This document shows, piece after piece, positions 24,831-64,000 of a DNA stretch of 64,000 nt; the first letter of the stretch is position 1, and each line of letters begins with the position of its first letter. A program made the translations under genes and the position numbers. The DNA comes from Acidobacteriota bacterium (lineage in GTDB: Bacteria; Acidobacteriota; Thermoanaerobaculia; Multivoradales; JBCCEF01). The stretch covers positions 89,385-153,384 of the forward strand of contig JBCCHV010000004.1 of assembly GCA_039028635.1 (NCBI GenBank), in the 5' to 3' direction. The notes beneath the pieces were generated by a model. The model ran no database searches and had not been told where the DNA came from. It saw nothing but the letters and a program-made list of their open reading frames with translations.

Positions 24831-25360
24831 TGGGTGATCGTGGTGGTATCGGTTGCGGCAAGCTCTTCCTGGGGTGTGGCTGTCTAGTCCTGATTCTGCT
24901 GTTGGTGAGCGGCTTGACCCTCGCCCTCAATCCCGACCTGCTCAAATCGACCGCCTGGTACCAAAAGGCCGAAGAGCTCGCCGCCGAGGGCAAAGGCGCC
25001 ATGCAGTTCGCCCTCACGCTGCGCGAAGAGCTGCTCTCGATCTATCCAGCGGAGGACCTGGGGGTCAACTGGAACTGGTCCAACGAGTCCGGCAAGACCC
25101 TCGCCGTCGAGATCGTCAACCCGGCCTTCGCCGACGACGAGAATGCGGACTGGAACGCCATCGCCCTCGAGATTGCTCGCTACACCGCCTCGGCCCACGG
25201 CAAGCCCGAAGAGCTCGAGGGAATTCAGGTCGTCATCACTCAGCGAGTCACCGCCGGCGTGAGCTTTTCGAAGGAGCAGGACTACTACTTCTCGATGGAG
25301 GAGATCGGCGACCTCGGCCTGCGACCGCAGGTCGAAGCGACCCCCGGCGAGACTCTCTGA
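24827..25360 (+). CDS. hypothetical membrane-anchored protein
   Basis: 177 aa with an N-terminal TM (LVLILLLVSGLTLAL). ATGA overlap with the lapA-like stop. Confidence 0.4.
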   Translation: MMGDRGGIGCGKLFLGCGCLVLILLLVSGLTLALNPDLLKSTAWYQKAEELAAEGKGAMQFALTLREELLSIYPAEDLGVNWNWSNESGKTLAVEIVNPAFADDENADWNAIALEIARYTASAHGKPEELEGIQVVITQRVTAGVSFSKEQDYYFSMEEIGDLGLRPQVEATPGETL

Positions 25361-28344: not shown

Positions 28345-28422
<78 letters not shown>

Positions 28423-42604: not shown

Positions 42605-44064
42605 CCGACCTCGGCCGCGACCTGGTGCTGGCCGCCGGGGGCTACGTGGCGCTCTTGCTGCTTGTGGGGGCGCTGGCCAGGCGCGCCTTGCGTGAGCGCA
42701 CCCTCAGCGACTTCTACCTCGCCGGACGGCGTCTCGGCCTGATGGTGTTGCTGCTCACCCTCTTCGCCACCCAATACAGCGGCAACTCCCTGTCCGGGTT
42801 TCCGGGGCAAACCTACCGCCAGGGCCTGGCCTACTTCATGAGCGTCACCTTCATGGTGGCGATCGTCGCCGGCTACACCCTGTTCGTGCCGTCCCTCTTC
42901 GCCCGCTCGCGGCGAGGCTCCTTCGTGACGCCGACGGATTTCCTGGCGCGGCGCTTCGGCAGCCCGCTGCTCAACTACCTGTCGGCGACCATTTTCGTGG
43001 TCACCTTGTTCAACTACCTGCTGGCCCAGTTGATGGCCATGGGCCATGCCTTCGCTGGCCTCACCAACGGCGCCGTGCCCTTCGCCACGGCGGTGCTGGT
43101 AGGGGCGGTGGTGATTCTGGTCTACGAGCTTCTCGGCGGCATGCGGGCAGTGGCCTGGACCGACGTTCTGCAAGGCGGCCTGCTGTTCAGCGGGCTCTTG
43201 CTGGTCGTAGTGCTGCTGTCGTTCGAGGTCGGCTCACCGGCGGATGTGATCGCGTCCGTCGAGGCGGTGGCGCCAGAGAAGGTGGCGAGTCCTGACTTGA
43301 GTATGTGCCTGGTGTGGGCGAGCAACTTCTTGCTCCTCGGCCTGGGGGCGCCTCTCTATCCCCAGGCAATCCAGCGAATCTACGCCGCCCGCAGCATGGT
43401 CACCCTGCGGCGAGCCCTGAGCGGGATGGCCTTTCTGCCCCTCATCGCGATCACCACAGTGGTCTGGATCGGTCTCGCCGGCATCGCCCTCTTCCCGGGT
43501 CTCGAGGGGGCCGAAACGGATCAGATCACCTTCCGTGTGCTCGCCTACCTGGTCGAAGCGCAGCCCCTCGCCTACCTGCCGGTGCTGGCGGTGATGATGG
43601 CGGTGGTGGCGGCGATCATGTCGACCGCCGATTCCTGCCTGCTGTCCCTGTCCTCCATCTTCACCAAGGACTTTCTGGCCCGCGCCCGCGGCCTCGACAA
43701 CGCCGAAGCCGAGCGCCTGCTGCGCTGGGGACCCTGGTTCAGCATCGCGGTCATGGCCTTGCTGGTCGGGGTCGCCCTGGCCCCTCGGATCACCCTCTGG
43801 GGTTTGCTGGTGATCAAGTTCGAGATCCTGATCCAGATGTCTCCCGCCTTCGTCCTCGGCACGCTCCACGAGGCCGACGACCGGCGCGCCTACAGCGCCC
43901 GCGACATCCTCCTCGGCCTCACTCTGGGCCTCGGCCTGGCGGTCACCCTGTACGCCTTGGGATTGCGCAACGTCGGCGGGATCCACGCCGGCGTGCTGGG
44001 GGTGGTGGTGAATTACCTGACGGCGGTGGGTTCGCGGACCCTGCGTCTTCAGCGCGCGGCGTAG
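42601..44064 (+). CDS. sodium:solute symporter (SSS) family transporter
   Basis: 13-TM SSS profile (DFYLAGRRLG, GGMRAVAWTDVLQG). Confidence 0.8.
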   Translation: MTDLGRDLVLAAGGYVALLLLVGALARRALRERTLSDFYLAGRRLGLMVLLLTLFATQYSGNSLSGFPGQTYRQGLAYFMSVTFMVAIVAGYTLFVPSLFARSRRGSFVTPTDFLARRFGSPLLNYLSATIFVVTLFNYLLAQLMAMGHAFAGLTNGAVPFATAVLVGAVVILVYELLGGMRAVAWTDVLQGGLLFSGLLLVVVLLSFEVGSPADVIASVEAVAPEKVASPDLSMCLVWASNFLLLGLGAPLYPQAIQRIYAARSMVTLRRALSGMAFLPLIAITTVVWIGLAGIALFPGLEGAETDQITFRVLAYLVEAQPLAYLPVLAVMMAVVAAIMSTADSCLLSLSSIFTKDFLARARGLDNAEAERLLRWGPWFSIAVMALLVGVALAPRITLWGLLVIKFEILIQMSPAFVLGTLHEADDRRAYSARDILLGLTLGLGLAVTLYALGLRNVGGIHAGVLGVVVNYLTAVGSRTLRLQRAA

Positions 44065-44768
44065 GCGGCCTTCAGCTCGGCCTGGACCTCTTCCGGCAGG
44101 CGCCGGGTGCCTTCCCGGAAGGTCAGGCCGGACATGCGGTCGAGGCGCGAGCGCACCCAGGCGGCGACCTTGTCGGGGGTCTTCTGGCTGGCCTCTCGCA
44201 GCACCCAACCGATCGCCTTGCGCAGAAAGAACTCCTTCTCCTCGAGCAGGTGGTCGGCGTAGCGGCTGAAGCGCGGCCAGTCGCCACGGCCCTCGCGCAG
44301 GGGGATGAGCAACGCCAGGAGCGAGGCGCGCTGGAGCCAGAAGTTGTCGTCCCGGTTCCAGCGATCGAGGGCGGCGCGGCCGGCGGCCGGAAAACGCTCG
44401 ACCAGCGAGCCGGCGAGGCGCACCGACAGCTCGTCGACGTGGGCCCAGGTGTTGGCTTTGCGCAGCAGGTTCTCGGTGAGCGCCAGATCTTCCGCCGTCA
44501 GCAGTCCGACCCGTAAGGCGAGGGCCTGGGCCCCGAAGGTACGCAGCTCGTGGACCCGGGTTTGCCACAGTCGGTGGGCCAGGGCGACCAGCTCGGCTCG
44601 GCCAATCTCCGGCCGGGCCTTGAGCCAACGGCGGACCTCGCGCCGAATGGTCGGCACTTTGACACCGAGGAACTCCAGGTCGCTCTTCAGGTAGCGTTTC
44701 TCGTTGGTAGCGCGCTCGGCCGTGCCGAGGGCGGCGAGGGTGGCTCGGATGTCGGCGATCGAGTCCAT
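44049..44768 (-). CDS. DNA alkylation repair enzyme (AlkD/AlkC-like HEAT-repeat glycosylase)
   Basis: 239 aa from MDSIADIRA, matching the DNA_alkylation family (NEKRYLKSDLEFLGVKVP ... WAHVDEL ... NFWLQRASLLAL). Confidence 0.7.
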   Translation of the reverse strand: MDSIADIRATLAALGTAERATNEKRYLKSDLEFLGVKVPTIRREVRRWLKARPEIGRAELVALAHRLWQTRVHELRTFGAQALALRVGLLTAEDLALTENLLRKANTWAHVDELSVRLAGSLVERFPAAGRAALDRWNRDDNFWLQRASLLALLIPLREGRGDWPRFSRYADHLLEEKEFFLRKAIGWVLREASQKTPDKVAAWVRSRLDRMSGLTFREGTRRLPEEVQAELKAAYAAR

Positions 44769-44793: not shown

Positions 44794-46422
44794 TCAGTCC
44801 TTCGAGGCGGCGAGACGCAGCACCATGTTCTCGAGCGGCAGCTCGGCCTTGACCCAGCGGGCCGGTCGTTGCGGTGAAGGCTGCCAGGGCTTTCCCGCCA
44901 GGGCATCGCGGAAGGCGAGGCGACCGAGCAACTGGTAGCTGGAGAGCCGAAAGGGGCGACCCTCTCCGGCCAGAGATTCGGGTTGGTCCGAGAGGTGGTG
45001 GTGGAGGTGGGGAGCCAGGCTGTGACCCGAGTTTCCGATCTCGGCGATCGGCTCTCCCGCGGCGACGCGGTCGCCGGGCGCAACCCGGATCGAGCCGGCG
45101 CGCAGATGGGCGTAGGTCGAGTAGCGGCCGTCGCCTTCGTCGATCACCACCGTATTGCCGGTGAGCGCGGCACGATTCGAATGCAGGGCCGCCTGCTCGG
45201 CGCCGGGAGGGTGGTCGGTCTGGTGGTCGCGAACCGAATGGACTCTGCCGCCGGCCATCGCCAGCACCGCTTCGCCGAAGCCGTACCAGTGGTGATTTTC
45301 GGAGCCATCTTCGGCAAACAGGCGACCGTCCGGTCCGAGGCGCGCCCAGTCGACGGCGAAGCGCTGAGCCAGGCTGGTCGAACCGTTCAGAGCGATCAGG
45401 GCGCGGCGATGGCCCGACGCGTTCGAGGGGCCGCGCAGGGCGACCCAGGTGCCCGCGCCGACCGGCGCGGCGAGGATCGGCTCGGGCGATTCCTCGACCT
45501 CGAGGGGGGCGGTTGACAGATCTTCCAGGCGCTCGTCGGTGGTGGTTTCGACCCGGTGACTCACCTTCTTCGGGGCCTCCGTACCGGCAGCGAGGGCGAG
45601 CCAGAGGTAGGCGATGGCGCGTCCTCCGGGAGACAGCCGACCGGGTGCTGCCGAAGGGTTGCCAACGGTGGCCAGTCGGCGGTGCAGGGCCTCGCCCTCC
45701 CAGGCGGCGATCTCGTCACCGGACTCCCCGAGCACAGCGAGGCGAGTGATCTGTCGCGCCGTGGTGCCGAAGTTGGTGAGATGGAGCTCGTAGACCAGGT
45801 GCTTTCTGCCGAGGGCATCGACCACCTGGGGCGCGGTCTGAGCCTGGACTTCGAGGGGGCTCTCGCCGGCGAGCTGGCCTTGGACCGCGGGCGCGAACCC
45901 TGTGATCCCGACAAACAGGGACAGCAGCACCGCGATGCCTGCCTTGCGCAGCAGCTCGTCGCGGCGGTGTAGGAGCGCCCGGTGTCGCTGGCGGGCTTGC
46001 CGCAGCGCCAGGCCGGCGATGGTGACCAGCGCCGCGCCGAAGGCGCTCGCCGTCAGCCCCAGGTGCCGCAGATCGGCCTGGGTCAGAGCCAGGGTGACGG
46101 CACCGGCAGTGAAGGCCCCGGTGACGACCACCGCGAGCCGGCCGGCGATCAGGCGGTGCTCGGCGAGGAGGACGTGGCGGCGGCTCAGGGTCCAGGCGAA
46201 GAACACTGCCCAGGCGACCGCCAAGGCCAGCAGGCCGGCGAAGGCCAGTTGAGTGCGAACCGGCAGTCCCGGCTCGGTCAGCCAGAGGGAGGCGACGGCA
46301 ACGGCACCCAGGAGGTCGAACAAGAGCAGCAGGAGGTAGACGATGCGCCGCCGCGGCGACAGCTCGGCAGCGAGTTTGCGCTGCATGACCTCGACGGTGG
46401 GGCGCGGTGAGGTCGGCTTCAT
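44794..46422 (-). CDS. membrane protein with C-terminal M23 (LytM-type) metallopeptidase domain; putative anti-sigma factor
   Basis: 4-5 N-terminal TM helices. M23 motifs HYGFGE (HxxxD-like) and SGHSLAPHLHHHL (HxH). The ATGA overlap with the upstream ECF sigma stop suggests coupling. Confidence 0.7.
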   Translation of the reverse strand: MKPTSPRPTVEVMQRKLAAELSPRRRIVYLLLLLFDLLGAVAVASLWLTEPGLPVRTQLAFAGLLALAVAWAVFFAWTLSRRHVLLAEHRLIAGRLAVVVTGAFTAGAVTLALTQADLRHLGLTASAFGAALVTIAGLALRQARQRHRALLHRRDELLRKAGIAVLLSLFVGITGFAPAVQGQLAGESPLEVQAQTAPQVVDALGRKHLVYELHLTNFGTTARQITRLAVLGESGDEIAAWEGEALHRRLATVGNPSAAPGRLSPGGRAIAYLWLALAAGTEAPKKVSHRVETTTDERLEDLSTAPLEVEESPEPILAAPVGAGTWVALRGPSNASGHRRALIALNGSTSLAQRFAVDWARLGPDGRLFAEDGSENHHWYGFGEAVLAMAGGRVHSVRDHQTDHPPGAEQAALHSNRAALTGNTVVIDEGDGRYSTYAHLRAGSIRVAPGDRVAAGEPIAEIGNSGHSLAPHLHHHLSDQPESLAGEGRPFRLSSYQLLGRLAFRDALAGKPWQPSPQRPARWVKAELPLENMVLRLAASKD

Positions 46423-46997
46423 GATGAGAGCTCCTCGGAGGTGATTCCTCGGGCTTCGAGAAAGGTGCGAAGAAGGCGTCGCGATCGATGCAGGCGCGAT
46501 TTCACCGTGCCCACGGGTACGCCCTGGACCTCGGCGATGTCGCGCAGCTCGAGCTCTCGCAGGTAGAAGAGAACCGTCGCTTCGCGATCCCAGGGCTCGA
46601 GCTCCTCGAGGGCTTGGGTAAGGAGCTCGAGGTCTTCCCACGGCAGCTCCGGCTCGCGAGCCGCCCTCGGCTCCTCGGCGAGGGGCTCGAGGTGGCTCTC
46701 GCCGGCCCGCGCTCGCAGGCGATCGACAAACGCGCGGCGCAGGATCGAGAACAGCCAGGGGCGGAGCCGAGACGGCTGTCGCAGGGCGGGCAGGGCGCGC
46801 AGGATGCGCAGCCAGCCGTCCTGCAAGATCTCCTCGGCCAACGCCGGGTCGCCACACATGGCGAGCACGTAGCGCCACAGCGGTCCGTGCCAGCGCGCCA
46901 CCAGCTCATCGAAGGCAGCGGCCTCGCCGAGCTGACAGCGCACCGCCAACAGCTCGCTGTCACGGTCCGCGGTGGGGGATGGAGGTCTCTGGTTCAT
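46419..46997 (-). CDS. ECF RNA polymerase sigma factor
   Basis: Region 2 (EEILQDGWLRILRAL) and region 4 (LRDIAEVQGVPVGTVKSRLHRSRRLL). Confidence 0.8.
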   Translation of the reverse strand: MNQRPPSPTADRDSELLAVRCQLGEAAAFDELVARWHGPLWRYVLAMCGDPALAEEILQDGWLRILRALPALRQPSRLRPWLFSILRRAFVDRLRARAGESHLEPLAEEPRAAREPELPWEDLELLTQALEELEPWDREATVLFYLRELELRDIAEVQGVPVGTVKSRLHRSRRLLRTFLEARGITSEELSS

Positions 46998-47122
46998 CGC
47001 CGTCTCTCGCTCCTACCAGTCGGTGAGGAGAGGGTCGAGGTTCACGGCGGCACCGGTCGAGAGTTGAGAGGGTTTATCGTATTGTCTGAGTAATATTTTA
47101 ATTGTTGTCGCCGGGAGGGAAG

Positions 47123-48292
47123 ATGGTGAGACGATCGCTGTGGAGCCTTGTCTTCATATGGATGGCCGTCGCTCCAGCCTGCGGAGCAGCCTTGTCATCG
47201 CAGGCTGACGATCCGAGGGCGGACGCTGTTGGCGAAGCAGTCGTCGCGGCTGCCGAACGTGCCGAGGTCGCTGCCGAACGAGCCGAACAGGCCGCGATGC
47301 GTGGGGACCGAGCTTCCAAGAAGGCCGACACGCTGGTGGGTGCGATGCAGGTCTTCGTGGCGGTGCTCGCTTTCATTCTGGTCGTAGCTGGTTCGATCGG
47401 ATTACTGGAGCTGCGAAATCTTCGCGAGGCTCGCCAACAGGCCGAAGCCCAAGTCGCCGAGATTCGGAAAATGCGGGACTCTCTGGGAGAGAGCTGGGCT
47501 CGCTTTGTGCGAGAGGCTCTCGAGCGACTGGAGGCGCTCGGGTCTTACATTGACGGAACCCATCCCGAGATGGAGCGTACCGACGAGTTCTTGGATGCCG
47601 ATCGCGTGGCCATTGTTGGTGATGCGCTCGGGCTCGCCAGGGATCCGAACACCCGATTCGACATCCTCTTTCGGCTGGGACGCCACTGGAAGAGTCAAGG
47701 ATTCTATGCCCGCGCCTTGCAGCGGTTCGAGCGGAGCCGGGAGTTGGCGGTAGACCTCAATGCCAGCAGTTGTGGAAAGGCCCGAGCCCTGAACTTCATG
47801 GCGCTGACGCTGATTGAATGGGCGGAGACGCTCAGCAAGCGATCGACCCAGCAGGTGACCGCCGGTCACGAGGACTCGTCACGCTCGGCGGGTGCGTCAC
47901 TACTTCAGGAGGCCGAAGGCATCTTGGTTCCGCTGCTTGGCGCGGGGGCCGAGGTCAGTGTCGAGACCCTTTTCGTTCAAGGCAAGCTGGAGTGGGCTCA
48001 GAGGCGACTGGACCAAGCCCTCGGCACTTATGCCGCAGTCATCGAACGGGCTCGCAACAGTGCAGATGAGGAGGAGAGAGCCGATGGCTACCGAGCGATC
48101 TACAACACGGCTTGCGCCCTCTGTGACCGCCGAAAGGAAGGAGACCTCTACCGTGCGATGGGCTTCCTGGAATCTCTTCCCAGGTCGGAAGGTTGGGCGC
48201 GATGGGCTGGAGAGGATGAAGACTTGCAGCCGCTGAGGGATGACCCGAACCTAGGGCCTCGGTTCGAGAGATTTACTTTTACCGAGAGGTAG
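47123..48292 (+). CDS. hypothetical protein (N-terminal signal/TM, helical repeats) in lower-GC segment
   Basis: Preceded by the AT-rich stretch TATCGTATTGTCTGAGTAATATTTTAATTGTTG and a GGGAGGGAAG RBS. No family was recognised. Confidence 0.5.
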   Translation: MVRRSLWSLVFIWMAVAPACGAALSSQADDPRADAVGEAVVAAAERAEVAAERAEQAAMRGDRASKKADTLVGAMQVFVAVLAFILVVAGSIGLLELRNLREARQQAEAQVAEIRKMRDSLGESWARFVREALERLEALGSYIDGTHPEMERTDEFLDADRVAIVGDALGLARDPNTRFDILFRLGRHWKSQGFYARALQRFERSRELAVDLNASSCGKARALNFMALTLIEWAETLSKRSTQQVTAGHEDSSRSAGASLLQEAEGILVPLLGAGAEVSVETLFVQGKLEWAQRRLDQALGTYAAVIERARNSADEEERADGYRAIYNTACALCDRRKEGDLYRAMGFLESLPRSEGWARWAGEDEDLQPLRDDPNLGPRFERFTFTER

Positions 48293-48550: not shown

Positions 48551-50599
48551 TCAGAGCAATCGAGCGTGGTAGATGCGGTGGTGGTCGTTGGCGTTGATCC
48601 AGAAGATCCTCACTTGCCCCCCGAGGTTGGCCAAAGCCGGTGCGCACGCCGCGTGGTGCGGGTCGCCGTTGATCGGAGCGGGCTGCGACCAGCTCTCGAA
48701 GGGAGAGGAAGAGCGACTGTAGAGGATGCGACTGCCATCGCCGCGCTCCTTCCAGGCAACGAAGACTTCGCCATTCAGCTCGGTGACCGCCGGTGAGAAG
48801 TCCGACGAAGCGCCCGGGATGGTCTTGGGTGCTTGCCAGGTCTGAGTATTCCAGCTCGTGTACCAGAGCTCCCGCGTCGCGCTTTTCGAGTTGCCGAAGA
48901 CCAGGAGCTGAGTTCCGACGGGGATCGCAGCCGGTGTTTTCTCGCTGGCATAGGCGTCACCGATTCGCTGAGGCGTTCCCCAGGAGATGCCGCCATCCTC
49001 GGAGGTCTTGTAGCAGAGGCGGCGCTTGTCCTCATCTTCCACCCACAGCAGGATGCGGCCGGTCTTGATGCCATAGAAGCGGCTGAGAGCCGGTGATTCG
49101 GGCGTGGCGTTGCCTTGAATCTCGGAGTGCTTGCTCCAGGTCCAGCCCTTCATCTGGCTCCAGGTTCCGCGAGCTCCGTAGATTTCCGGCTGGTTCCATT
49201 CGTACCCGCGCCAGACGAGCTGCAGGCCTTCATTGTCGCTGAGCTTGTCCGGGAGCGCCGCCGAGTAGAGGTAGGTCAGGTAGTTGCGCCAGTCGCCTCC
49301 GCCGACGATCTCGGGAGCCTTCCAGGTTTCGCCCTGGTGTCGGCTGCTGAAGTAGATGCCGCCGCGGGCGTGCTCCGCTGTCCACAAGACCATGGACTCG
49401 GGACTCGGGGGGTCGAGATTGGGAGTGCCGTGGAAGTCGAAGGCGACCGGGGTTTGACGCGATTTGGCGTTGGGGTGGAGGGCTCGCCCACGACTGAAGT
49501 CCCCCGACCACAAGCAGCCGGAGTGGGCGTTCACGTGCGCCGCGATGCGGCTGATGTTGGGAGCCAGGAAGATGCGCTTGGTGCCGAAGGATGGGCACAT
49601 GATGATGGCGTCGGGCCCTTGGCAGTGCTCGGTGCCGACGTGCAGGGCGCCGAAGTTGTGCCCCAGCTCGTGAGAGACCAGGGCGACCAAGCCGTTCTGG
49701 CTTCCGAAGGGCAGAGCGGAAAGACCATAGGTCGGTGTCTTGCACACCGTGCCGGTGTCGGCGATGCCGGCGATGTTGCCGTCGAGCTCCTTGCCGCTGA
49801 ACAGATGGGTGAGGGCCCGTTCGGCGGTGATCTGGCCGCCGTAGGCACGCAATTGCCCCAGTAGCGTCGTGTCCTTGGTCGACTTGTAGGGCTGTGCGCT
49901 CGCCGACTTGTGGACGGCGAGGTGGGTGACCACGAGGCGCAGTCCGTGATGGCTTTCGAAGACGGCGCTGACCTCGTTGAGGACGCCCAGAATCTTGGCG
50001 CTCCAGTTGCTCTGATTTCGATTCCAGAACTCGAAGTCGGCCTCGATCGCGATCGGCACCGTAAAGGTCGGATTCATCGCTTCTGTCGGAGGGGTGTTCG
50101 GGACCGGCGAGACTTCGGTCGGATTGCCGCAGCTCGGCTCCGTTGGGTTCGGTGAGGAGATGAGATCCGAATCCCGATACAGCACCAAAAGGCTGTCATC
50201 AAGGCTCTCGCTGAAGGAGGCCGCAGGCTCGAAGAAGGTCGTTTCCCCGGGAGTCGCGATTCGTCCTTGCAAGAAGCCCGGGGCGATGACCAGCTGGACG
50301 CTGCTCTCGGGCTGGTGGGTGAGGTGACCGCGGTAGATGCCGATGCGCTCGAGCTCGCGGGCGGTTTCCACCGAGTCGGCGAGGTCGCCGTCCCAGATCG
50401 CATGAGGCTCGAGGGTGAGCTCGAGCTCGCGGTCTGCGATGCGCAGGACGACCGGTTCTCCTGCCGACAGGGCTCGGCGGAGAGCATCGACCTGCAGGTG
50501 GAACAACGTGAAGTGGGCGAGGTGCGGGGCGAGCGCGTCGCGCAGAGCGGTGGTGGGTTCGACGATATCGGCGGTGACAGGTGTCTGGTTCGTTGTCAT
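48551..50599 (-). CDS. metzincin zinc metalloprotease (reprolysin/M12B-like) fused to BNR/Asp-box-containing C-terminal region
   Basis: HELGHNFGALH zinc site followed by the Met-turn AIIMCP. The C-terminus has Asp-box-like SEDGGISWGT and Trp-rich repeats. GGGAGGAAGAG RBS before the ATG at 50597-50599. No obvious signal peptide. Confidence 0.65.
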   Translation of the reverse strand: MTTNQTPVTADIVEPTTALRDALAPHLAHFTLFHLQVDALRRALSAGEPVVLRIADRELELTLEPHAIWDGDLADSVETARELERIGIYRGHLTHQPESSVQLVIAPGFLQGRIATPGETTFFEPAASFSESLDDSLLVLYRDSDLISSPNPTEPSCGNPTEVSPVPNTPPTEAMNPTFTVPIAIEADFEFWNRNQSNWSAKILGVLNEVSAVFESHHGLRLVVTHLAVHKSASAQPYKSTKDTTLLGQLRAYGGQITAERALTHLFSGKELDGNIAGIADTGTVCKTPTYGLSALPFGSQNGLVALVSHELGHNFGALHVGTEHCQGPDAIIMCPSFGTKRIFLAPNISRIAAHVNAHSGCLWSGDFSRGRALHPNAKSRQTPVAFDFHGTPNLDPPSPESMVLWTAEHARGGIYFSSRHQGETWKAPEIVGGGDWRNYLTYLYSAALPDKLSDNEGLQLVWRGYEWNQPEIYGARGTWSQMKGWTWSKHSEIQGNATPESPALSRFYGIKTGRILLWVEDEDKRRLCYKTSEDGGISWGTPQRIGDAYASEKTPAAIPVGTQLLVFGNSKSATRELWYTSWNTQTWQAPKTIPGASSDFSPAVTELNGEVFVAWKERGDGSRILYSRSSSPFESWSQPAPINGDPHHAACAPALANLGGQVRIFWINANDHHRIYHARLL

Positions 50600-50895
50600 C
50601 TCTTCCTCCCGGAAGGCTTGAGAAGAAGCGACCGCAGGGCGAATACACGCTGGCTGTTCGCCGATCGCAGGGACGCTGGGTCCGTAGCCGGTCGACGCTC
50701 GTTGGGGGAAACCTGCCCCGGATCGCAGATTGGAATCTGCACCGGGTGTGTTCTCGGCGGAGAAACGTTTCAGCAGCTCAGGAGTCGAGCTGCTAGGGCG
50801 GTCCGCCTGTGTCCTACGGGTTGCTGAAGGGGCCATCGGCCGGGGCATCCCTCGATGGAGGTCCCGGCGGCCTCGAGGGGTACCTGCCTCCGGCG

Positions 50896-57841: not shown

Positions 57842-58027
57842 CCCTCGCCCGTCCTTCTCACCAGCTTTCCGCTGCGAGTCCGTAGGTCCCCGAATCTGCT
57901 GCGTTATCCGTCGCTTGCTCTCCTCGCAGTACGTCGAGTACGGCAGCGTCGTGGCAGCGACGGATGCCTTGCATCTTCAAGAATCTACGGCCTCTCGCCA
58001 GGAAACCTCGTGAGAAGGGCGGGCTAG
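57839..58027 (+). mobile_element. MITE-like inverted-repeat element, family B copy 3
   Basis: Exactly fills the gap between convergent genes. The left TAG is the sigma stop codon and the right CTAG contains the amine oxidase stop. Confidence 0.6.
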
Positions 58028-59217
58028 AACGTTCGGGAGGTGCTCTCCAGGACTTGATCCACGGCCTCGAACCCGGAGAGGGCGGCGCCGTGCACGGTGG
58101 CCCAGCTTTCGGCGTAGGTCTCGCCGGCGAAGAAGACCTTGCCTTCGAGCGGCGAGCGGAGGATGGCCCGGGTTGCCGCGTCGGTATCGAAGGTGTAGGA
58201 ACCTCGGATGAAGGGTTCTTTCGACCAGTTCTGTACGACGTGTTTCACATGGTGCTTGGAGGCTGCGCCGCCGAAGATGCGATCGAGCTCGTCCAGCGCG
58301 AGGTCGACAGTCTCTTGGTCGGTCGCGGCCGTTGCGTAGGGTCTCGCAGGGTCCCCAACGGTGAACAGACCGAGGATGTTCCTCGAGCTGTCCTTCTTGA
58401 AAGCCGCGTCGTAGTAGATCTTCTCGCCCCAGCCCTGGATCTTATTGGGTCCGCCTTGGAGGAGGTCGGGGTAGAACCGCTCCCGGAATTCGAAGAACAA
58501 CTTCAGGCCATCCGGCATCGAGAGGCGGTTCAACGCCGCGACTTTCTCCCCGGGCAGCTCGGGAGTGAACTGAATCTCCGCTTCTTTCAGGACCGTCAAG
58601 GGGACTGTGACGATGATGCGATCGGCTTTGTGAGTCGTGCCGTCTTGCGTGATCACCTGGACTCGGCGGCCCGAAACGTCGATGGCCCGGACCGGGCTGT
58701 CGAGACGAATGCGGCCCTGGATTCTGGACGCCAGGTGTTTTTCGAAGAAGCCGAACCAGGTTGTCCGCTTGAACTTGTGCTCCGCATAGACGAGTGAAGC
58801 GAGGCGGTTCTTGCGGATCCGGCCGCCCTTCCAGGTCGAGATCCAAGGGTTGTACTTGACGACCTCGAACTTGCGACCAGCCTCTGGATCGTGCGCCAAC
58901 TCTTCCAGAATCGAAGGCGCGGTGTGAATCCACTCTGCGCCGAGGTCGATGGGGAAGTCAGCGAAGTCGGAGATCCGCTTCATGCGGCCGCCGATACGAG
59001 AGGAGGCCTCGAGGATCTCGAATTCGACGCCGCGGCGCTCGAGGGCGAAGCCGGCGGCGAGTCCCGCGGCCCCGGCGCCGATCACCAGCACCTTGAAGTC
59101 CAAGGCAGGCGTGACGCTTCTTCGCCCCGCAGCTTCCTGAGGTTGAATCCTCAGAGCAAGCTGCTGAAGGCCGAGAATGGCGCCTGCTGCGCCGCGGAGG
59201 AAGGTCCTGCGATCCAT
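58024..59217 (-). CDS. flavin-containing amine oxidase (Tat-secreted)
   Basis: Tat motif MDRRTFLRGAAGA. FAD Rossmann VLVIGAGAAGLAAGFAL..EILEASSRIGGR. C-terminal amine-oxidase block (FFAGETY). Confidence 0.75.
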   Translation of the reverse strand: MDRRTFLRGAAGAILGLQQLALRIQPQEAAGRRSVTPALDFKVLVIGAGAAGLAAGFALERRGVEFEILEASSRIGGRMKRISDFADFPIDLGAEWIHTAPSILEELAHDPEAGRKFEVVKYNPWISTWKGGRIRKNRLASLVYAEHKFKRTTWFGFFEKHLASRIQGRIRLDSPVRAIDVSGRRVQVITQDGTTHKADRIIVTVPLTVLKEAEIQFTPELPGEKVAALNRLSMPDGLKLFFEFRERFYPDLLQGGPNKIQGWGEKIYYDAAFKKDSSRNILGLFTVGDPARPYATAATDQETVDLALDELDRIFGGAASKHHVKHVVQNWSKEPFIRGSYTFDTDAATRAILRSPLEGKVFFAGETYAESWATVHGAALSGFEAVDQVLESTSRTF

Positions 59218-59437
59218 CAGGACAGAGTATAGCGACGGAGCCCTAGACGGTCGTCTCTCTCGAGTACAAGCCCATCTTCGTTTCGGAGGCGTCCCTGCGC
59301 GGCCCCTCTACGGCAGCCTCTCAGGGCAGCGGAGGAGGCGCCGAATCAAGACGCGGGGCGATTGGCTCGAATCTGCGGGCTACCTCATCCGCTCAGTTGC
59401 GCCTTTCGGCCAGTTTTGGTGTTGCCTCCCTCGTCCG

Positions 59438-59827
59438 CTACCAGGCCTCGACTTGAAGAGATTCGACCTGAGCGAAGTGGCGATCACGAGTCGCCAGGAT
59501 CAGATCGTGTTGCCGGGCACAGGCTGCAATCCAGATATCGTTCTCAGGAATCGGCCGCCCCTGCTGTTGGAGATGCGCCTTAAGCGTCCCGTACTGCTGA
59601 GCAGTCGCGATGTCCTGTGGCATCACCGGACAGACCTCTACCAGCCCTTCGATCCGGCGACGGTTGGCCTCGGGACGAGCTGACTTCGCAGCCCCAAAGA
59701 GCAATTCACCGACGACCATGAGGCAGAGAAAAGACTTGATCCCGAGACCGCGGCGGGCTTCAAGATCAACGTCCTGATTGAGCACACGTATGGCGACGTT
59801 GGTATCGAGCAGGTACCTACCACTCAT
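59438..59827 (-). CDS. vapC: type II toxin VapC (PIN-domain ribonuclease)
   Basis: 129 aa starting MSGRYLLDTNVAIRVLN. PIN acidic residues (D at LLDTN, E in GELLFGA, D in ILATRD). Confidence 0.75.
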   Translation of the reverse strand: MSGRYLLDTNVAIRVLNQDVDLEARRGLGIKSFLCLMVVGELLFGAAKSARPEANRRRIEGLVEVCPVMPQDIATAQQYGTLKAHLQQQGRPIPENDIWIAACARQHDLILATRDRHFAQVESLQVEAW

Positions 59828-60068
59828 CGGCGTCGACCCGCCACCCATCCGCGTCAACCTGCTCGCATCCCTCTTCGATTGCTTCCATCATCTCGCGCGC
59901 CGATTTGTCGTCAAGAGTGCCGGCAACCTTCATCAGATCCTCGACCGAGGCTCCCTGAAGGCTGGACCTGGCCAGATCGTGGACCAGCGCGGCGGCCCGC
60001 TCCTGTTGCTTGGGCGAGAGCCGGTCCAGGTCACTAAGAATCTGCTCCTTGATCGTTGGTACCACCAT
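59817..60068 (-). CDS. type II antitoxin (VapB-like) of VapC
   Basis: 83-aa acidic protein. The 11-nt overlap with the vapC start is the classic TA operon layout. Confidence 0.55.
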   Translation of the reverse strand: MVVPTIKEQILSDLDRLSPKQQERAAALVHDLARSSLQGASVEDLMKVAGTLDDKSAREMMEAIEEGCEQVDADGWRVDADEW

Positions 60069-60432
60069 AGTGCCACCTCCTTTGCGCTCCGGTGCGCGGT
60101 CCGATTCTATCCGGCAGCCTAAGGAGGCGGTGAGATCGCCCCTGCCTCTTCGGCAAGAGCCAGGAGATACCTCATAGCGACCTCCCTACCGTTGGCCTCG
60201 GTGGTATCCGATTGAAGAGGTGCCCCAACGACCCGCCTTCCTATGCTCGGTGGACCGAGTTGGAGTTGGCAGGTCGGGCGGTCCTGTAGGATGTCCGCAA
60301 TACATCTTGAGCGAATTCTTGAAATCATGCTCTGGCTTCCACCTCTGGGCAGGAAATTCTAGCTTGGACACTTCTCCTTGGTTGCTTTGGGGAGGCTTGG
60401 GCAGCACACGGCCAACGAAGAGGAGGCAGACA

Positions 60433-61695
60433 TTGGCAAGGCGGGGATTCTTTGCAGAGATTAGCCACCAAGTGCGACAGGCGGAAAAGGCAAGAGCAAG
60501 GGCGGAGCGAGAGGAGGAGCGAGCTAGGAAGGCGGCTATCCGTGATCTTGAAAGAGCCCGGAAGAAGTCCGAGCGCCTTAGGCAGCAAGCTGTAAGAGCC
60601 CACGCTGCTGAGAAGAAGAGGCTCGAAAAAGAGGCTCGTGCTGCTCACTTCGCCGCTAGACAAGCCGAGGTCGACAAGCAGAACAGCGAGCTTGAGCAGC
60701 AGTTCCAAGAGATTGAATCCCTATTAGCAGCCACGCTTGATGTAGATGATTATGTAGACTTGGACTCTCTCCGGAAGAAGGCCGAGCACCCGGCGTTTGG
60801 CCACCCGGATCTTGAGGTACCCATCCAGCCACCCGAACCACCTTCTGAGTCGCCAGAGCCAGTGTTCATTGAACCAAGGGCACCGAAGGGGCTTGCGGCG
60901 CTTTTTGGCCGGAAGAAGGCAGCGAGAGCGGTTGCGGCAGCCAATGAAGCTCATGTGGAAGCCGTCACTGCCTGGCGCTCCAAAGTAGAAGAGCTCAAAG
61001 CCCTTCACAAGGCTGAGTTGAGGGGCGCCGCAGAGCGCGAGGAGAAGCGATTAGAGCGGCTCAAGGCTGAGAGAGGGAAGTATGAGAAAGAGTGCGCCGA
61101 GCGTGAAAAGGCCGTTGCCGAACACAACTCTAGGCTAGATACCTTCATAACCAATCTTGGCTACGGAACTGCCGAAGCGATTCAAGAGTACGTGTCCATC
61201 GTGCTGGCGAACTCTGTCTACCCTCCGGTATTTCCTGTCGATCACGACTTTGACTTCGACCCAAATAGCGCCGAGCTCCGGTTGCGGGTTGTCGTTCCGC
61301 CCCCCGAAGCAATGCCGACCGTCAAGGCCTACCGATACGTCAAATCCAAAGACGAAATCATGGCAACGTCCCTTTCCCAGAAAGCGTCCAAAGAGAGGTA
61401 CGAAAGTGCCATCCATCAAGTGGCGCTTCGGTCGGTGCATGAGGTGTTCGAAGCCGACCGCCGGGGGCTCATTAGGACCATCTCCATGGAACTGGGCACA
61501 GAGACTGTCAGACCAGCAACGGGGCGGATGGACTACTTCCCATTCGTCGCCTTGGCAACTGACCGAGATCAGTTCCTTGAGCTGAACCTATCGGCCGTCG
61601 TGCCAACCGCCAGCCTTGAGCATCTTGGTGCGGTGATATCCAAGAATCCCTTTGGGCTAGTTACGGTTGATGCATCAGGGGTCCGTCAGGCATGA
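60433..61695 (+). CDS. hypothetical coiled-coil protein (component A of candidate two-gene defence module)
   Basis: TTG start 6 nt after a GAGGAGG RBS. About 200 aa of Lys/Arg/Glu-rich coiled coil (AEKARARAEREEERARKAAIRDLERARKK...), then a roughly 200-aa globular C-terminal domain (VDHDFDFD ... YESAIHQVALRSVHEVF). No P-loop. About 58% GC. Confidence 0.55.
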   Translation: MARRGFFAEISHQVRQAEKARARAEREEERARKAAIRDLERARKKSERLRQQAVRAHAAEKKRLEKEARAAHFAARQAEVDKQNSELEQQFQEIESLLAATLDVDDYVDLDSLRKKAEHPAFGHPDLEVPIQPPEPPSESPEPVFIEPRAPKGLAALFGRKKAARAVAAANEAHVEAVTAWRSKVEELKALHKAELRGAAEREEKRLERLKAERGKYEKECAEREKAVAEHNSRLDTFITNLGYGTAEAIQEYVSIVLANSVYPPVFPVDHDFDFDPNSAELRLRVVVPPPEAMPTVKAYRYVKSKDEIMATSLSQKASKERYESAIHQVALRSVHEVFEADRRGLIRTISMELGTETVRPATGRMDYFPFVALATDRDQFLELNLSAVVPTASLEHLGAVISKNPFGLVTVDASGVRQA

Positions 61696-63044
61696 CCGAT
61701 GACTCGGCTATCTTCAATCCCCCTCCTGGCTGGCCAAAACCGCCAGAGGGCTGGAAGCCGCCACCTGGCTGGTCACCGGACCCCGCCTGGCCTGCGCCGC
61801 CCGAGGGCTGGGAACTGTGGCTTCCGGCAACTGCCGAGGACGGGAAGCAAGATGAGGCTGAGTCGACTTCTCCTGCCAAGTTGCCCAGGGGGAACTCGGA
61901 AGCGAGACAGGCCGACAGCGCTTCGGTGGACCGGGTCGCACAGCTCGAAGCGGAGAACGCGGCACTACGCGCACGCCTAGACTCTGATCCTCTAGAGGAC
62001 GATGCCATCACCCTGAGCGACGAGGCGGTGCTCCAAGAGGTGGGCATCTACCAATACCACCACCCGCTGGAAAGCGCGGTTGCTTACAAGGAAACCCTGA
62101 AGAAGCTGTCGAGTCGAATCGCAGATCAAGTGCGCTTCAGAAGCGCGATCGAGGTCTCGAGCCGATTCACCTTCAACAACTCGCTCGCGCAGGGGCGCAG
62201 GCTGTCCTCGAACCTCTCTCGACTGATGCTTCGCGCTTACAACGCTGAGGTAGACAATTGTCTTCGCTCGCTGAGAGCTGGAAACGTAGTTACCGCGAAG
62301 AAGAGAGTCGAGGCTTCTCGCAGGGCGATCAGAAAGCTCGGCAGCATTATGGAGATGCAGATTAGCCCCGGGTACCACGCGCTACGACTTGAGGAGATCG
62401 AGCTCACAGCGGACTACCTGATCAAGAAGAAGGAAGAGAGGCTCGCGGCCCGAGAGGAGCGGGCCCGCCTCCGGGAGGAACGACGGGTCGAGGCCGAGTT
62501 GGCGGCGGAGCGCGAGCGGCTAGAGAAAGAACGCAGCCACCTCCTGAACGCCCTGGCAACTCTTCGGGCGGGCGGCTCTTCGGATGAGGACCTGGAGAGC
62601 AAACTAAGCGAAGTCGAGGTGGCGATTGAGCACAATGACTACCGGGCGGCCAACATCCGAGCAGGCTACGTGTATGTCATATCTAATCGTGGCTCTTTTG
62701 GGAGAGGAGTCGTCAAGATAGGGCTTACTCGCCGCCTGCAGCCGCTAGTGCGCGTTTCCGAGCTTAGCGGGGCCTCGGTGCCTTTTCGGTTTGATGTGCA
62801 TGGACTCTTCTTCTCAGAGGATGCAGTCTCCCTCGAGGCCGAATTGCACGAGGAATTTGCGCCGCGCCGTGTGAACCTCGCGAATAGCCGTAAGGAATTT
62901 TTCTTTGCGAGCCCGTCGGAGGTCCAAGAGGCCTTGGTGTCGAAAGTTGGAAGCTTGCTGGAATTCAAAGAGGAGGCTGAGGCGACCGAGTACTGGCAAA
63001 GCCTGCACCACTGGCCAGAGGACCACAGAAGCCGCAATCAATAG
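61692..63044 (+). CDS. DUF4041 + T5orf172 (GIY-YIG-like nuclease) domain protein (component B)
   Basis: ATGA overlap with gene A. N-terminal PxGW tandem repeats. DUF4041-like helical region with RLAAREERARLREERR. C-terminal T5orf172/MUG113 motif GYVYVISNRGSFGRGVVKIGLTRR...R..EL....PF.FDVH..F.SEDA..LE..LH..F...RVN......EFFFASP. Confidence 0.65.
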   Translation: MTDDSAIFNPPPGWPKPPEGWKPPPGWSPDPAWPAPPEGWELWLPATAEDGKQDEAESTSPAKLPRGNSEARQADSASVDRVAQLEAENAALRARLDSDPLEDDAITLSDEAVLQEVGIYQYHHPLESAVAYKETLKKLSSRIADQVRFRSAIEVSSRFTFNNSLAQGRRLSSNLSRLMLRAYNAEVDNCLRSLRAGNVVTAKKRVEASRRAIRKLGSIMEMQISPGYHALRLEEIELTADYLIKKKEERLAAREERARLREERRVEAELAAERERLEKERSHLLNALATLRAGGSSDEDLESKLSEVEVAIEHNDYRAANIRAGYVYVISNRGSFGRGVVKIGLTRRLQPLVRVSELSGASVPFRFDVHGLFFSEDAVSLEAELHEEFAPRRVNLANSRKEFFFASPSEVQEALVSKVGSLLEFKEEAEATEYWQSLHHWPEDHRSRNQ

Positions 63045-63248
63045 GTTCGGAAGAGCGATGAGAACCTCGCCGTAGCTAGGGAGGGGTGTAGCGCTGCGCT
63101 CGACGCTCATGCTTTAGGTGCCGGCGTAGTCACAGTTCCACCCTCCTCCCTGACTCTTCAGCCTCAACTTGAATCAGCAGGGCTGGCTGCCTGGTCCGAT
63201 GAGCCAGAGGTTTGCCCCGGTTCTCGAAAGCCCACTGGTCCAGCGATC

Positions 63249-63616
63249 GTGCCTCTCCCGTCACCGGTGATCTCCTTCCTTGCTGACCTTCGCAAAGAGC
63301 GTCGCTCCGAGGTCTGGGTCGTCGCCAACAAGGCCGGGAATCGAGAAAGACACCTCCTCGAGATTTTCAAGATCGTCTGCCGGCGAGCCAAGATCACCCC
63401 TCAGGCAGCGATGCTTTATGCGCTCCGTCGTTCCTTCGGGACCCACCTGCGAGGGCAGGGGTTCGCCTGGCTGACATCGCTGGTCTCAGGGGGCAAAGCG
63501 ACCTGGCAACCACCAAGATCTACGCTAGCCTACCTCCCTCCGATTTCGGCGGCGCTGTTACGCAAAATGACGCCGTTGGTGGGTGGCTCTGGCGAGCCGT
63601 CACACAAACCTGCTGA
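63249..63616 (+). pseudogene. tyrosine recombinase/integrase remnant (C-terminal catalytic part only, frameshifted)
   Basis: One frame gives the R...HxxR box (LYALRRSFGTHLRGQG). The conserved LATTKIYASLPPS tail with the catalytic Tyr is in a different frame, so there is a frameshift near 63470. The N-terminal two thirds are absent. Confidence 0.5.
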
Positions 63617-63689
63617 AGAGAGCGAGTCGACTCGCTTGATCGAGCCTAAACCATCGCTAATAAGAGGCTTGGAGAGTGGTATCGAGAAG

Positions 63690-63763
63690 TGGCTGGGACG
63701 CAGGGAGTCGAACCCCGATTCTACGGTCCAGAGCCGCATGTCTTGCCATTAGACGACGTCCCA
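63690..63763 (-). tRNA. tRNA-Gln (anticodon CUG)
   Basis: Reverse complement: TGGGACGTCGTCTAATGGCAAGACATGCGGCTCTGGACCGTAGAATCGGGGTTCGACTCCCTGCGTCCCAGCCA. 7-bp acceptor stem, GTCT/AGAC D stem, anticodon loop CTCTGGA, T-loop TTCGACT, encoded CCA. Confidence 0.8.
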
Positions 63764-63874
63764 AGCGGACGAGAGGGTAACCGATTCGGCGCTTCTCGGT
63801 CAAGCCGTGAGCGGGGCACGAAGGTTGCCGCAAAGGCCAGCGCTGTTGGGCGTTTTGGCCTTCTGATCGGGACC

Positions 63875-64000
63875 TACTCGCTGGTCGGTGCGATCTCGGC
63901 GAGGTAGGCGATGAAGTGGTCGAGCCGTTGGCGCGTCGCCGGGCGACCGACGAGGGCGACGAGGTCGAAGACCGGCGGGCCCTTCTTGCTGGCGGAGAGC
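63875..64000 (-). CDS. 3' end of an unidentified gene (partial, continues beyond window)
   Basis: The minus-strand frame reads ...LSASKKGPPVFDLVALVGRPATRQRLDHFIAYLAEIAPTSE* with a strong GC3 bias. GC returns to about 70% here. Confidence 0.35.

Follow-up and report, generated by a model that had tools for sequence, protein, structure and literature searches.

The extracytoplasmic function (ECF) sigma factors described so far provide several points of comparison for a sigma factor encoded next to a polytopic membrane protein. According to the ECF classification 2.0, cognate anti-sigma factors are typically encoded at the +1 position, and three groups come with putative anti-sigma factors that have four transmembrane (TM) helices (PMC7826278). 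ECF209 is a group of ~60 proteins, listed as 100% actinobacterial, whose sigma-4 region contains a Cys that is conserved (Casas-Pastor et al. 2021, NAR 49:986; bioRxiv 10.1101/2019.12.11.873521). The authors suggested that its +1 four-TM protein is a new anti-sigma factor, the genomic context includes a helix-turn-helix gene, and an autoregulatory promoter of the form CCGTGAACC-Xn-CCGACTGT has been predicted (bioRxiv 10.1101/2019.12.11.873521). In Caulobacter crescentus, the polytopic negative regulator NrsF, which is supported by experiments and has an N-terminal segment of only 25 residues, holds its sigma factor SigF (ECF16) at the membrane (PMC3511200). In the literature, we found neither experimental work on ECF209 nor a report of a fusion between an M23 peptidase and an anti-sigma factor. 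Here we analyse a gene pair from a metagenome-assembled genome (MAG) of an Acidobacteriota bacterium (GCA_039028635.1), in which an ECF sigma gene overlaps a gene encoding a four-TM module fused to an M23 domain. The pair lies on contig JBCCHV010000004.1, within a stretch of 64,000 nucleotides (nt) that covers positions 89,385-153,384 of the forward strand and is referred to as the window throughout.

We propose that the pair probably constitutes an autoregulated, ECF209-like sigma factor together with its cognate four-helix membrane inhibitor, and that the M23 domain represents an output which was joined to the anti-sigma factor by gene fusion. The features on which this proposal is based are compiled in Table 1.

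Results

The sigma gene overlaps a gene whose product starts with a conserved four-TM module

The sigma factor of 192 amino acids (aa) matches the Pfam families Sigma70_r2 (PF04542; 1.2e-15) and Sigma70_r4_2 (PF08281; 1.6e-11), and it scores 89.2 bits against TIGR02937 (sigma70-ECF) as compared to a cut-off of 42.9. It consists of regions sigma-2 and sigma-4 only and its length falls into the range of ~170-200 aa, as is characteristic for the ECF (group 4) sigma factors. The ATG of the partner gene (46422-46420) overlaps the TGA of the sigma gene (46421-46419), and a Shine-Dalgarno-like GAGGAG ends ~9 nt upstream of this ATG. The NCBI gene calls of the source MAG (MEM7048627.1 and MEM7048626.1) report identical boundaries and lengths for both genes. 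Thus, DNA and gene calls bear out the ATGA overlap that had been described in an earlier note on this stretch. The note had also conceded that a mis-called start would leave the genes uncoupled; the agreement with the NCBI calls and the recurrence of the overlap in related loci speak against such an error.

An exhaustive hidden Markov model search with the N-terminal module of the partner protein returned at least 426 clusters (50% identity, E<=1e-3), 333 of them at E<=1e-10, and a profile of the module retrieved more than 120 clusters of 'hypothetical proteins' of 150-186 aa. These standalone members can be aligned over their full length to residues 1-162 of the window protein (39-52% identity) and stop just past the basic cytoplasmic helix that follows TM4. 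Among the best 150 family representatives listed, ~10 exceed 400 aa, while most have 150-186 aa and no extracytoplasmic domain. There is no Pfam or NCBIfam model for the family, and scanning of 112 members at E<=0.01 yielded no anti-sigma domain.

Fourteen independent loci holding a four-TM homologue were inspected, which span Acidobacteriota, Thermoanaerobaculia, Vicinamibacterales and the cultured alphaproteobacterium Sphingomonas sanxanigenens. In each of them, a closely related ECF sigma gene is located directly upstream on the same strand, and in 13 of the 14 the two genes overlap by 4 nt, the exception being L100 with a gap of 2 nt. The sigma orthologues upstream of every four-TM homologue examined exhibit ~50% identity (E 1e-46 to 1e-61). 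This conserved pairing is in agreement with the earlier proposal of a coupled pair in which the partner gene takes the position of an anti-sigma factor. As judged from position and conservation, residues 1-162 are likely an anti-sigma factor, which would act through binding of the sigma factor.

Alternatively, the four-TM module could be a membrane partner of exported hydrolases, providing an anchor, immunity or activation, and would then merely be co-transcribed with a sigma factor that is controlled otherwise. The lack of homology between the module and any anti-sigma domain would be in line with such a role, as would Rosetta-stone logic, given that the module is found fused to M23 as well as to S33 hydrolases (see below). 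However, the three standalone members checked, one of which is WP_025295223.1 of Sphingomonas sanxanigenens, reside on long contigs (L097, L098, L099) in which the ECF sigma gene comes first, the 4-nt overlap is present and no peptidase or hydrolase gene is near. Moreover, the module is the only universally conserved neighbour of the sigma factor, at the +1 position that is typical of cognate anti-sigma factors, and it is difficult to see how the most conserved of its cytoplasmic elements would serve an enzyme in the periplasm. A mere hydrolase partner is thus quite improbable.

The partner protein combines the module with a signal-peptide-like helix and periplasmic domains

The fusion protein of 542 aa contains five hydrophobic helices (residues 27-48, 58-79, 93-114, 123-140 and 163-182). 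Lys and Arg residues are distributed according to the positive-inside rule, with seven in the N-terminus, three in loop 2 and eight behind TM4 as compared to one each in loops 1 and 3. This charge pattern fits an N-in topology that places the C-terminal 360 residues outside the membrane. The module itself is composed of a basic cytoplasmic N-terminus of 26 residues (with a helix at residues 10-20), TM1-TM4 and a basic cytoplasmic helix (residues 141-162). Its periplasmic loop 1 carries the motif SLWLTEPGLPVRT (residues 45-57; SLWxTEPxLPxRT), which is nearly invariant in the four-TM family. An AlphaFold2 model built from 93 sequences reached a mean predicted local distance difference test score of 90.3, and the scores were lowest at residues 163-182 (45-58), the sole poorly defined part.

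Residues 1-183 contain no Cys and therefore no zinc-binding anti-sigma (ZAS) motif. Neither zf-HC2, RskA, RseA nor any other anti-sigma Pfam domain was found in the window protein, even at E<=10, and the beta-sandwich as well as the N-terminal module gave nothing meaningful in Pfam and NCBIfam scans. Accordingly, the cryptic anti-sigma domain for which the earlier note had suggested to screen the N-terminus did not emerge from these scans, and its statement that a ZAS domain is absent holds. Its description of 4-5 TM helices followed by M23 can now be specified as four TM helices, a fifth helix resembling a signal peptide and a match to PF01551.

A database search with the whole protein identified seven other full-length fused clusters at 41-50% identity, which derive from different samples and MAGs. 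The same search yielded many proteins of 350-520 aa whose similarity is restricted to residues ~165-542 and which have one signal peptide at their N-terminus; these are designated short forms in the following. Related loci were located with the full-length protein alignment. The fused relatives (L001/L002/L008, L003, L010 and L017) are each preceded by a closely related ECF sigma gene with a 4-nt overlap (E 1e-57 to 1e-61; L017, where the copy is truncated, 2.5e-25). The earlier note had recommended to look for the architecture in other genomes, and this search shows that it occurs in at least eight clusters at 41-50% identity from different samples and is therefore not due to chance or an assembly artefact. 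It is true that truncation or a frameshift is evident in some relatives that are present only as fragments (P0037, P0068, P0162 and P0192), as would be expected if a mis-called start, a frameshift or an assembly error had joined two genes. But the window protein is encoded by an uninterrupted open reading frame with an ATGA start, the same architecture recurs in independent samples and the NCBI calls agree, which leaves a practically negligible probability for such an artefact.

TM5 reads RRDELLRK-AGIAVLLSLFVGITGFAPAVQG/Q (the slash marks the putative cleavage site), that is, a positively charged n-region is followed by a hydrophobic h-region and by small residues at positions -3 and -1 before Q183. 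Alignment of the fused proteins with the short forms places TM5 on the signal peptides of the latter, residue for residue. In both types of protein the cleavage motif precedes a conserved Gln that is located 22 residues upstream of an LGRxHLVYE motif. The site reads VQG/Q in the window and ARA/Q, AIA/Q or ASA/Q in others (AxA/Q in the short forms). Since the chain is on the cytoplasmic side after TM4, a signal peptide and the mature enzyme can be attached there without disturbing the topology. Residues allowed at -3 and -1 are kept in 8/8 fused forms, which suggests that the precursor is still cleaved, namely between Gly182 and Gln183.

Split loci and a second type of fusion

In five loci (L014, L015, L100, the P0018 locus and the P0014 locus), the architecture is split, as the genes for sigma and the four-TM protein are divergent from a short-form M23 gene. 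In L014, which belongs to a Vicinamibacterales MAG, and in L015, the gene downstream of sigma overlaps it by 4 nt and encodes a four-TM protein of 171 or 184 aa (39-40% identity), and the M23 protein is encoded separately by the divergent gene and equipped with its own signal peptide. A second type of fusion joins the four-TM module to an S33 'TAP-like' alpha/beta-hydrolase (P0161, P0172, P0187 and P0199), again with a signal-peptide-like helix in between. In the one S33 fusion locus inspected (P0172; L101:3974-5746), the sigma factor is 52% identical to that of the window, the overlap amounts to 4 nt and the same promoter (see below) is present.

Two further arrangements were noticed among the M23 relatives. 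In L006 (L006:2705-5458) and also in L007, an ECF sigma gene (179 aa) is found on the same strand as genes for a 195-aa four-TM protein and an M23 protein, the latter belonging to the same periplasmic family (41% identity) and carrying an extra N-terminal domain. The 195-aa protein was rejected as a split homologue of the module (hhalign E 0.14 and 0.026, ~1% probability), and the trio may represent an independent, analogous sigma/four-TM/M23 system. Distant short-form relatives (P0022-P0032; ~30-38% identity) possess an N-terminal DUF3471 domain (PF11954). In the distant short-form loci fetched (~30-38% identity), neither a sigma-type promoter nor a related ECF sigma gene was found nearby; therefore, the link to sigma seems to be confined to the closer clade with 42-50% identity.

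A shared promoter motif precedes the sigma genes and separate M23 genes

A common motif is found in the 100-150 nt that precede the sigma genes, namely cGTGAACCTTTT-N10/11-sCGACTcc, which can be reduced to GTGAACC-N15/16-CGACT and is present upstream of sigma in 11/11 related loci having upstream DNA. In the window, it is located within the 104-nt region upstream of sigma; GTGAACC constitutes the -35 element, and the -10 element (CGACT) ends 20 nt before the sigma ATG, just outside the range covered by the earlier note (44794-46997). In the split loci for which DNA is at hand (L014, L015 and L100; 3/3), a second copy is positioned back to back on the opposite strand and points into the M23 gene. 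In addition, the motif precedes short-form M23 genes that have no sigma gene nearby (L005/L009 and L019). In a position weight matrix (PWM) scan, the sites of the related loci reached 28-35 bits as compared to <=20.6 bits for the best other match in 539 kb searched on both strands. Scans for sigma-70 promoters and intrinsic terminators between 43900 and 47300 detected none. The next-best PWM match in the window, at position 25258 (16.3 bits), was judged noise, and the window contains no second copy. In L001, four copies of a CCAAGGCGCGCC-like repeat separate the sigma promoter from a Y1_Tnp (PF01797) transposase gene (L001:4290-4350), an arrangement that resembles repetitive extragenic palindromes and their associated tyrosine transposases (REP/RAYT).

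Because the separate M23 genes bear a sigma-type promoter, the M23 protein is marked as a target, i.e. an output. The simplest reading of the motif distribution would be an autoregulated ECF sigma factor that has a secreted M23 protein in its regulon, with the window sigma factor presumably recognizing the motif.

The M23 domain had previously been considered as either sensor or output of the pair. As an extracytoplasmic sensor or regulatory domain, it would control the stability of the anti-sigma factor and the release of sigma through binding or cleavage of peptidoglycan or through gated signal-peptidase cleavage behind TM5. A precedent for the latter is RsiV, in which signal peptidase cuts at an AxA site only upon binding of lysozyme (PMC4183432). 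Such a role could account for the covalent joining of M23 to the putative anti-sigma factor in at least eight clusters, the presence of two different hydrolases on the same module hints at functional coupling, and the invariant periplasmic loop 1 could provide a contact site. However, most four-TM members have no periplasmic domain, and hence sensing cannot depend on one. In the split loci, M23 is a separate secreted protein under a sigma-type promoter, which is the behaviour of a target. Finally, cleavage at the retained site would recreate a standalone anti-sigma factor rather than destroy it. A sensory role of the M23 domain is thus unlikely, and the attractive idea that it monitors the cell wall is probably wrong, whereas the role as output gains support from the promoters in front of the separate M23 genes.

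The M23 domain keeps YxHL and HxH, while the canonical HxxxD motif is not recognizable

PF01551 matches residues 383-479 (5.2e-15; 55.9 bits as compared to a gathering cut-off of 28.7), and in Foldseek the model resembles M23 endopeptidases of the multidomain, periplasmic type (E ~1e-8, probability 1.0). Invariant residues of the domain are H338, R354, D358, H439, H472 and H474. The motifs Y437-A-H439-L and H472-L-H474 occur without exception in the 8 long and 26 short forms aligned and match up with YxHL and PHLHF of Pgp3, ShyA and lysostaphin, and D358, H439, H472 and H474 are invariant down to ~30% identity. The canonical HxxxD motif is not recognizable: the contiguous position reads WYGFG, which is outside the hhalign match, and the only xxxxD strand is R354-F-A-V-D358. 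The earlier designation of the domain as a complete M23 peptidase agrees with the PF01551 match and the HxH and YxHL motifs, and is uncertain with respect to HxxxD. The motif HYGFGE quoted in this context actually reads HHWYGFGE (residues 377-384), and its His residues are not conserved in homologues, so that it is not the zinc motif; candidates among the invariant residues are H338, D358, H439, H472 and H474.

The domain could accordingly be a degenerate, non-catalytic LytM domain of the EnvC/NlpD/DipM type that regulates other cell-wall hydrolases, a role compatible with either regulatory model. An Arg occupies the canonical position of the first zinc ligand in 34/34 aligned members, and the sequence and profile alignments to solved M23 enzymes reach only the C-terminal half of the domain, ending before the first zinc-ligand region. 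On the other hand, D358, H439, H472 and H474 remain invariant, while degenerate LytM domains usually lose several of the conserved residues. Moreover, the invariant H338 (SGHRR), which is located 20 residues upstream of the RFAVD region, may replace the canonical zinc-ligand His; in the structure of LasA, the His and Asp ligands are 13 residues apart. We regard a degenerate domain as possible, if doubtful, and peptidase activity as the presumed function.

Features of the locus and its neighbourhood

Table 1. Features of the sigma/M23 locus. Positions are those of the window.
Feature	Position	Strand	Basis
ECF-type promoter of the sigma operon, GTGAACC-N16-CGACT	47018..47045	-	Sole core match in the window
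ECF sigma factor gene, 192 aa	46419..46997	-	Pfam and TIGR02937
ATGA start/stop overlap (translational coupling)	46419..46422	-	Read directly from the DNA
Fusion gene, 542 aa: four-TM module, signal-peptide-like TM5, beta-sandwich and M23	44794..46422	-	
Residues 1-162, putative anti-sigma module	45937..46422	-	End-to-end match to standalone proteins
Residues 163-182, TM5, putative retained signal peptide with type I signal-peptidase motif	45877..45936	-	
Residues 183-320, periplasmic beta-sandwich domain	45463..45876	-	AlphaFold2 strands 190-303; kept in all short forms
Residues 321-542, M23 (LytM-type) domain and C-terminal beta extension	44797..45462	-	PF01551, PDB matches and Foldseek

Downstream of the fusion gene, an AlkD-like DNA alkylation repair gene (PF08713, 4.4e-47; 44049-44768, minus strand) starts 25 nt past the stop codon. 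The two genes have the same orientation, the intervening sequence contains no terminator-like site, and they may be co-transcribed. The AlkD-like neighbour is not conserved in related loci; in L001, DoxX follows instead. On the other side, a gene for a 396-aa protein with a weak TPR match (47102-48292, plus strand) is divergent from sigma across an AT-rich spacer of ~100 nt, and beyond it is a gene for a 765-aa reprolysin-like (M12B) metalloprotease (48551-50848, minus strand), whose C-terminal half gives a weak BNR-like match below the threshold. The window further contains tRNA-Gln (63690-63763, minus strand) and tRNA-Met (28345-28421, plus strand) genes, and its last part (58001-64000) has a G+C content of 0.58-0.62 as compared to ~0.68 elsewhere.

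In three of the related loci (L014:1025-3652, L098:6637-9644 and L099:8692-11721), the sigma/four-TM pair adjoins a gene for an 'orphan permease' of ~880 aa with MacB_PCD/FtsX domains, in L098 and L099 together with a PadR gene. No sigma-type promoter was found before the PadR or MacB_PCD/FtsX genes of L014, L098 and L099. The association with PadR and the permease could be chance, such genes being abundant in Acidobacteriota.

Discussion

Taken together, our data are best explained by a sigma factor that is kept in check by a four-helix membrane protein and that controls both its own operon and a secreted M23 protein. In the proposed scenario, the short cytoplasmic parts of the inhibitor, namely the conserved N-terminus of 26 residues, loop 2 and the basic helix following TM4, would tether the sigma factor to the membrane. 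A signal from the envelope, possibly read by the invariant periplasmic loop SLWxTEPxLPxRT, would free the sigma factor, which could then transcribe from GTGAACC-N15/16-CGACT its own operon and, in related bacteria, the gene for a separate secreted beta-sandwich/M23 peptidase. In the lineage of the window, the peptidase gene would have been fused in frame behind the anti-sigma gene. With the end of TM4 facing the cytoplasm, the signal peptide that the peptidase brought along takes the place of TM5 and would therefore still export the enzyme. Signal peptidase I might then split the precursor into an anti-sigma factor resembling the standalone proteins and a free periplasmic peptidase.

Several observations weigh against this scenario and explain why we put it forward with reservation. 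Binding of the sigma factor by the four-TM module and cleavage of an internal signal peptide behind four TM helices are steps that we infer. No similarity of the module to known anti-sigma domains was detected, and among solved folds it resembles only generic helical hairpins. The replacement of the canonical HxxxD by R354-F-A-V-D358 renders catalysis uncertain. The window copy of the promoter motif is the weakest of the set (19.2 bits in the PWM scan of the window) and the core pattern is expected 0.41 times per 64-kb window by chance, so that its weight derives from its position and from conservation across loci. Finally, the fusion of one module to two unrelated hydrolases may signal a functional link rather than a merely neutral event.

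The last point can be extended to a more speculative proposal, namely that the four-TM proteins form a new, widespread class of ECF anti-sigma factors that repeatedly capture their own secreted target hydrolases (M23 or S33), and that fusion is non-neutral. We advance this idea only tentatively. If true, the fusion might generate a polyprotein that is processed by signal peptidase and thereby fixes the ratio of anti-sigma factor to enzyme. Alternatively, the exported enzyme or its product might act on the loop SLWxTEPxLPxRT; such a feedback by the enzymatic output has not been described for ECF systems.

Irrespective of this possibility, a regulator that is fused to its own regulated, exported product via a retained signal peptide would be an unusual architecture, and it would have arisen with two unrelated hydrolases. 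The comparison defines a family for hundreds of 'hypothetical' four-TM clusters from soil Acidobacteriota and some Proteobacteria, together with conserved motifs and a hypothesis on their function. For the ECF209-like group, the analysis provides a testable promoter motif and a candidate for a first regulon member, the secreted M23-type peptidase, and the trio of sigma factor, anti-sigma factor and promoter might be of use as an orthogonal expression part.

How does this locus compare with described systems? With regard to the enzyme, the closest counterparts are ShyA (6ue4), Pgp3 (6jmx), NMB0315 (3slu), Csd3 (4rny) and PA 2hsi, which likewise carry an N-terminal beta domain before the LytM/M23 domain and share YxHL and HxH. 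The window protein differs from them by an identity of only 14-15%, by RFAVD in place of HxxxD, by an insertion of ~25 residues and by a C-terminal extension of ~60 residues, and none of them is fused to a regulator. SigV-RsiV and SigP-RsiP-PbpP likewise link an ECF sigma factor to a cell-wall enzyme, and the signal-peptidase AxA site of RsiV adjoins the TM helix of the anti-sigma factor, which recalls the putative site of the fusion protein. However, RsiV and RsiP are single-pass proteins with a class I anti-sigma domain. Moreover, the enzymes in question, lysozyme in the former case and a penicillin-binding protein sensing beta-lactams in the latter, provide the signal or act as sensor rather than being a fused regulon product. 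More generally, class I anti-sigma factors of the RsrA, ChrR, RseA and RslA type possess an N-terminal, helical domain of ~70-90 aa in the cytoplasm, which in ZAS members contains HxxxCxxC, whereas only 26 residues precede TM1 in the window protein.

NrsF is more similar in design, as it is encoded directly after its sigma factor, has short linkers and is associated with a similar promoter (GTAACC-N16-CGAA). Nonetheless, NrsF comprises six TM helices, belongs to DUF1109 and signals via two periplasmic Cys residues, whereas the window module has four TM helices and no Cys. Neither the module nor any of the 112 family members scanned matched PF06532 (DUF1109), and the resemblance to NrsF is functional and architectural only. 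ECF209 differs from the systems analysed here in its hosts, which are Acidobacteriota and Sphingomonas in our case, and in sigma-4, which in the window (residues 124-192) is devoid of Cys; furthermore, no hydrolase target or fusion has been reported for ECF209. There are nevertheless several likenesses. The window promoter can be written as CCGTGAACC-N14-CCGACTGG (47018..47047), matching the predicted ECF209 promoter at 9/9 and 7/8 positions, respectively. The +1 gene encodes four TM helices, a pattern shared by the standalone homologues, and PadR is found next to the sigma/four-TM pair in L098 and L099, reminiscent of the helix-turn-helix protein in the ECF209 context. In view of the taxon and the missing sigma-4 Cys, the window pair is therefore best placed as ECF209-like or in a sister group, the promoter and the four-TM partner providing the likeness. 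Thus, ECF209-like pairs of a sigma factor and a four-TM protein appear to extend beyond the Actinobacteria.

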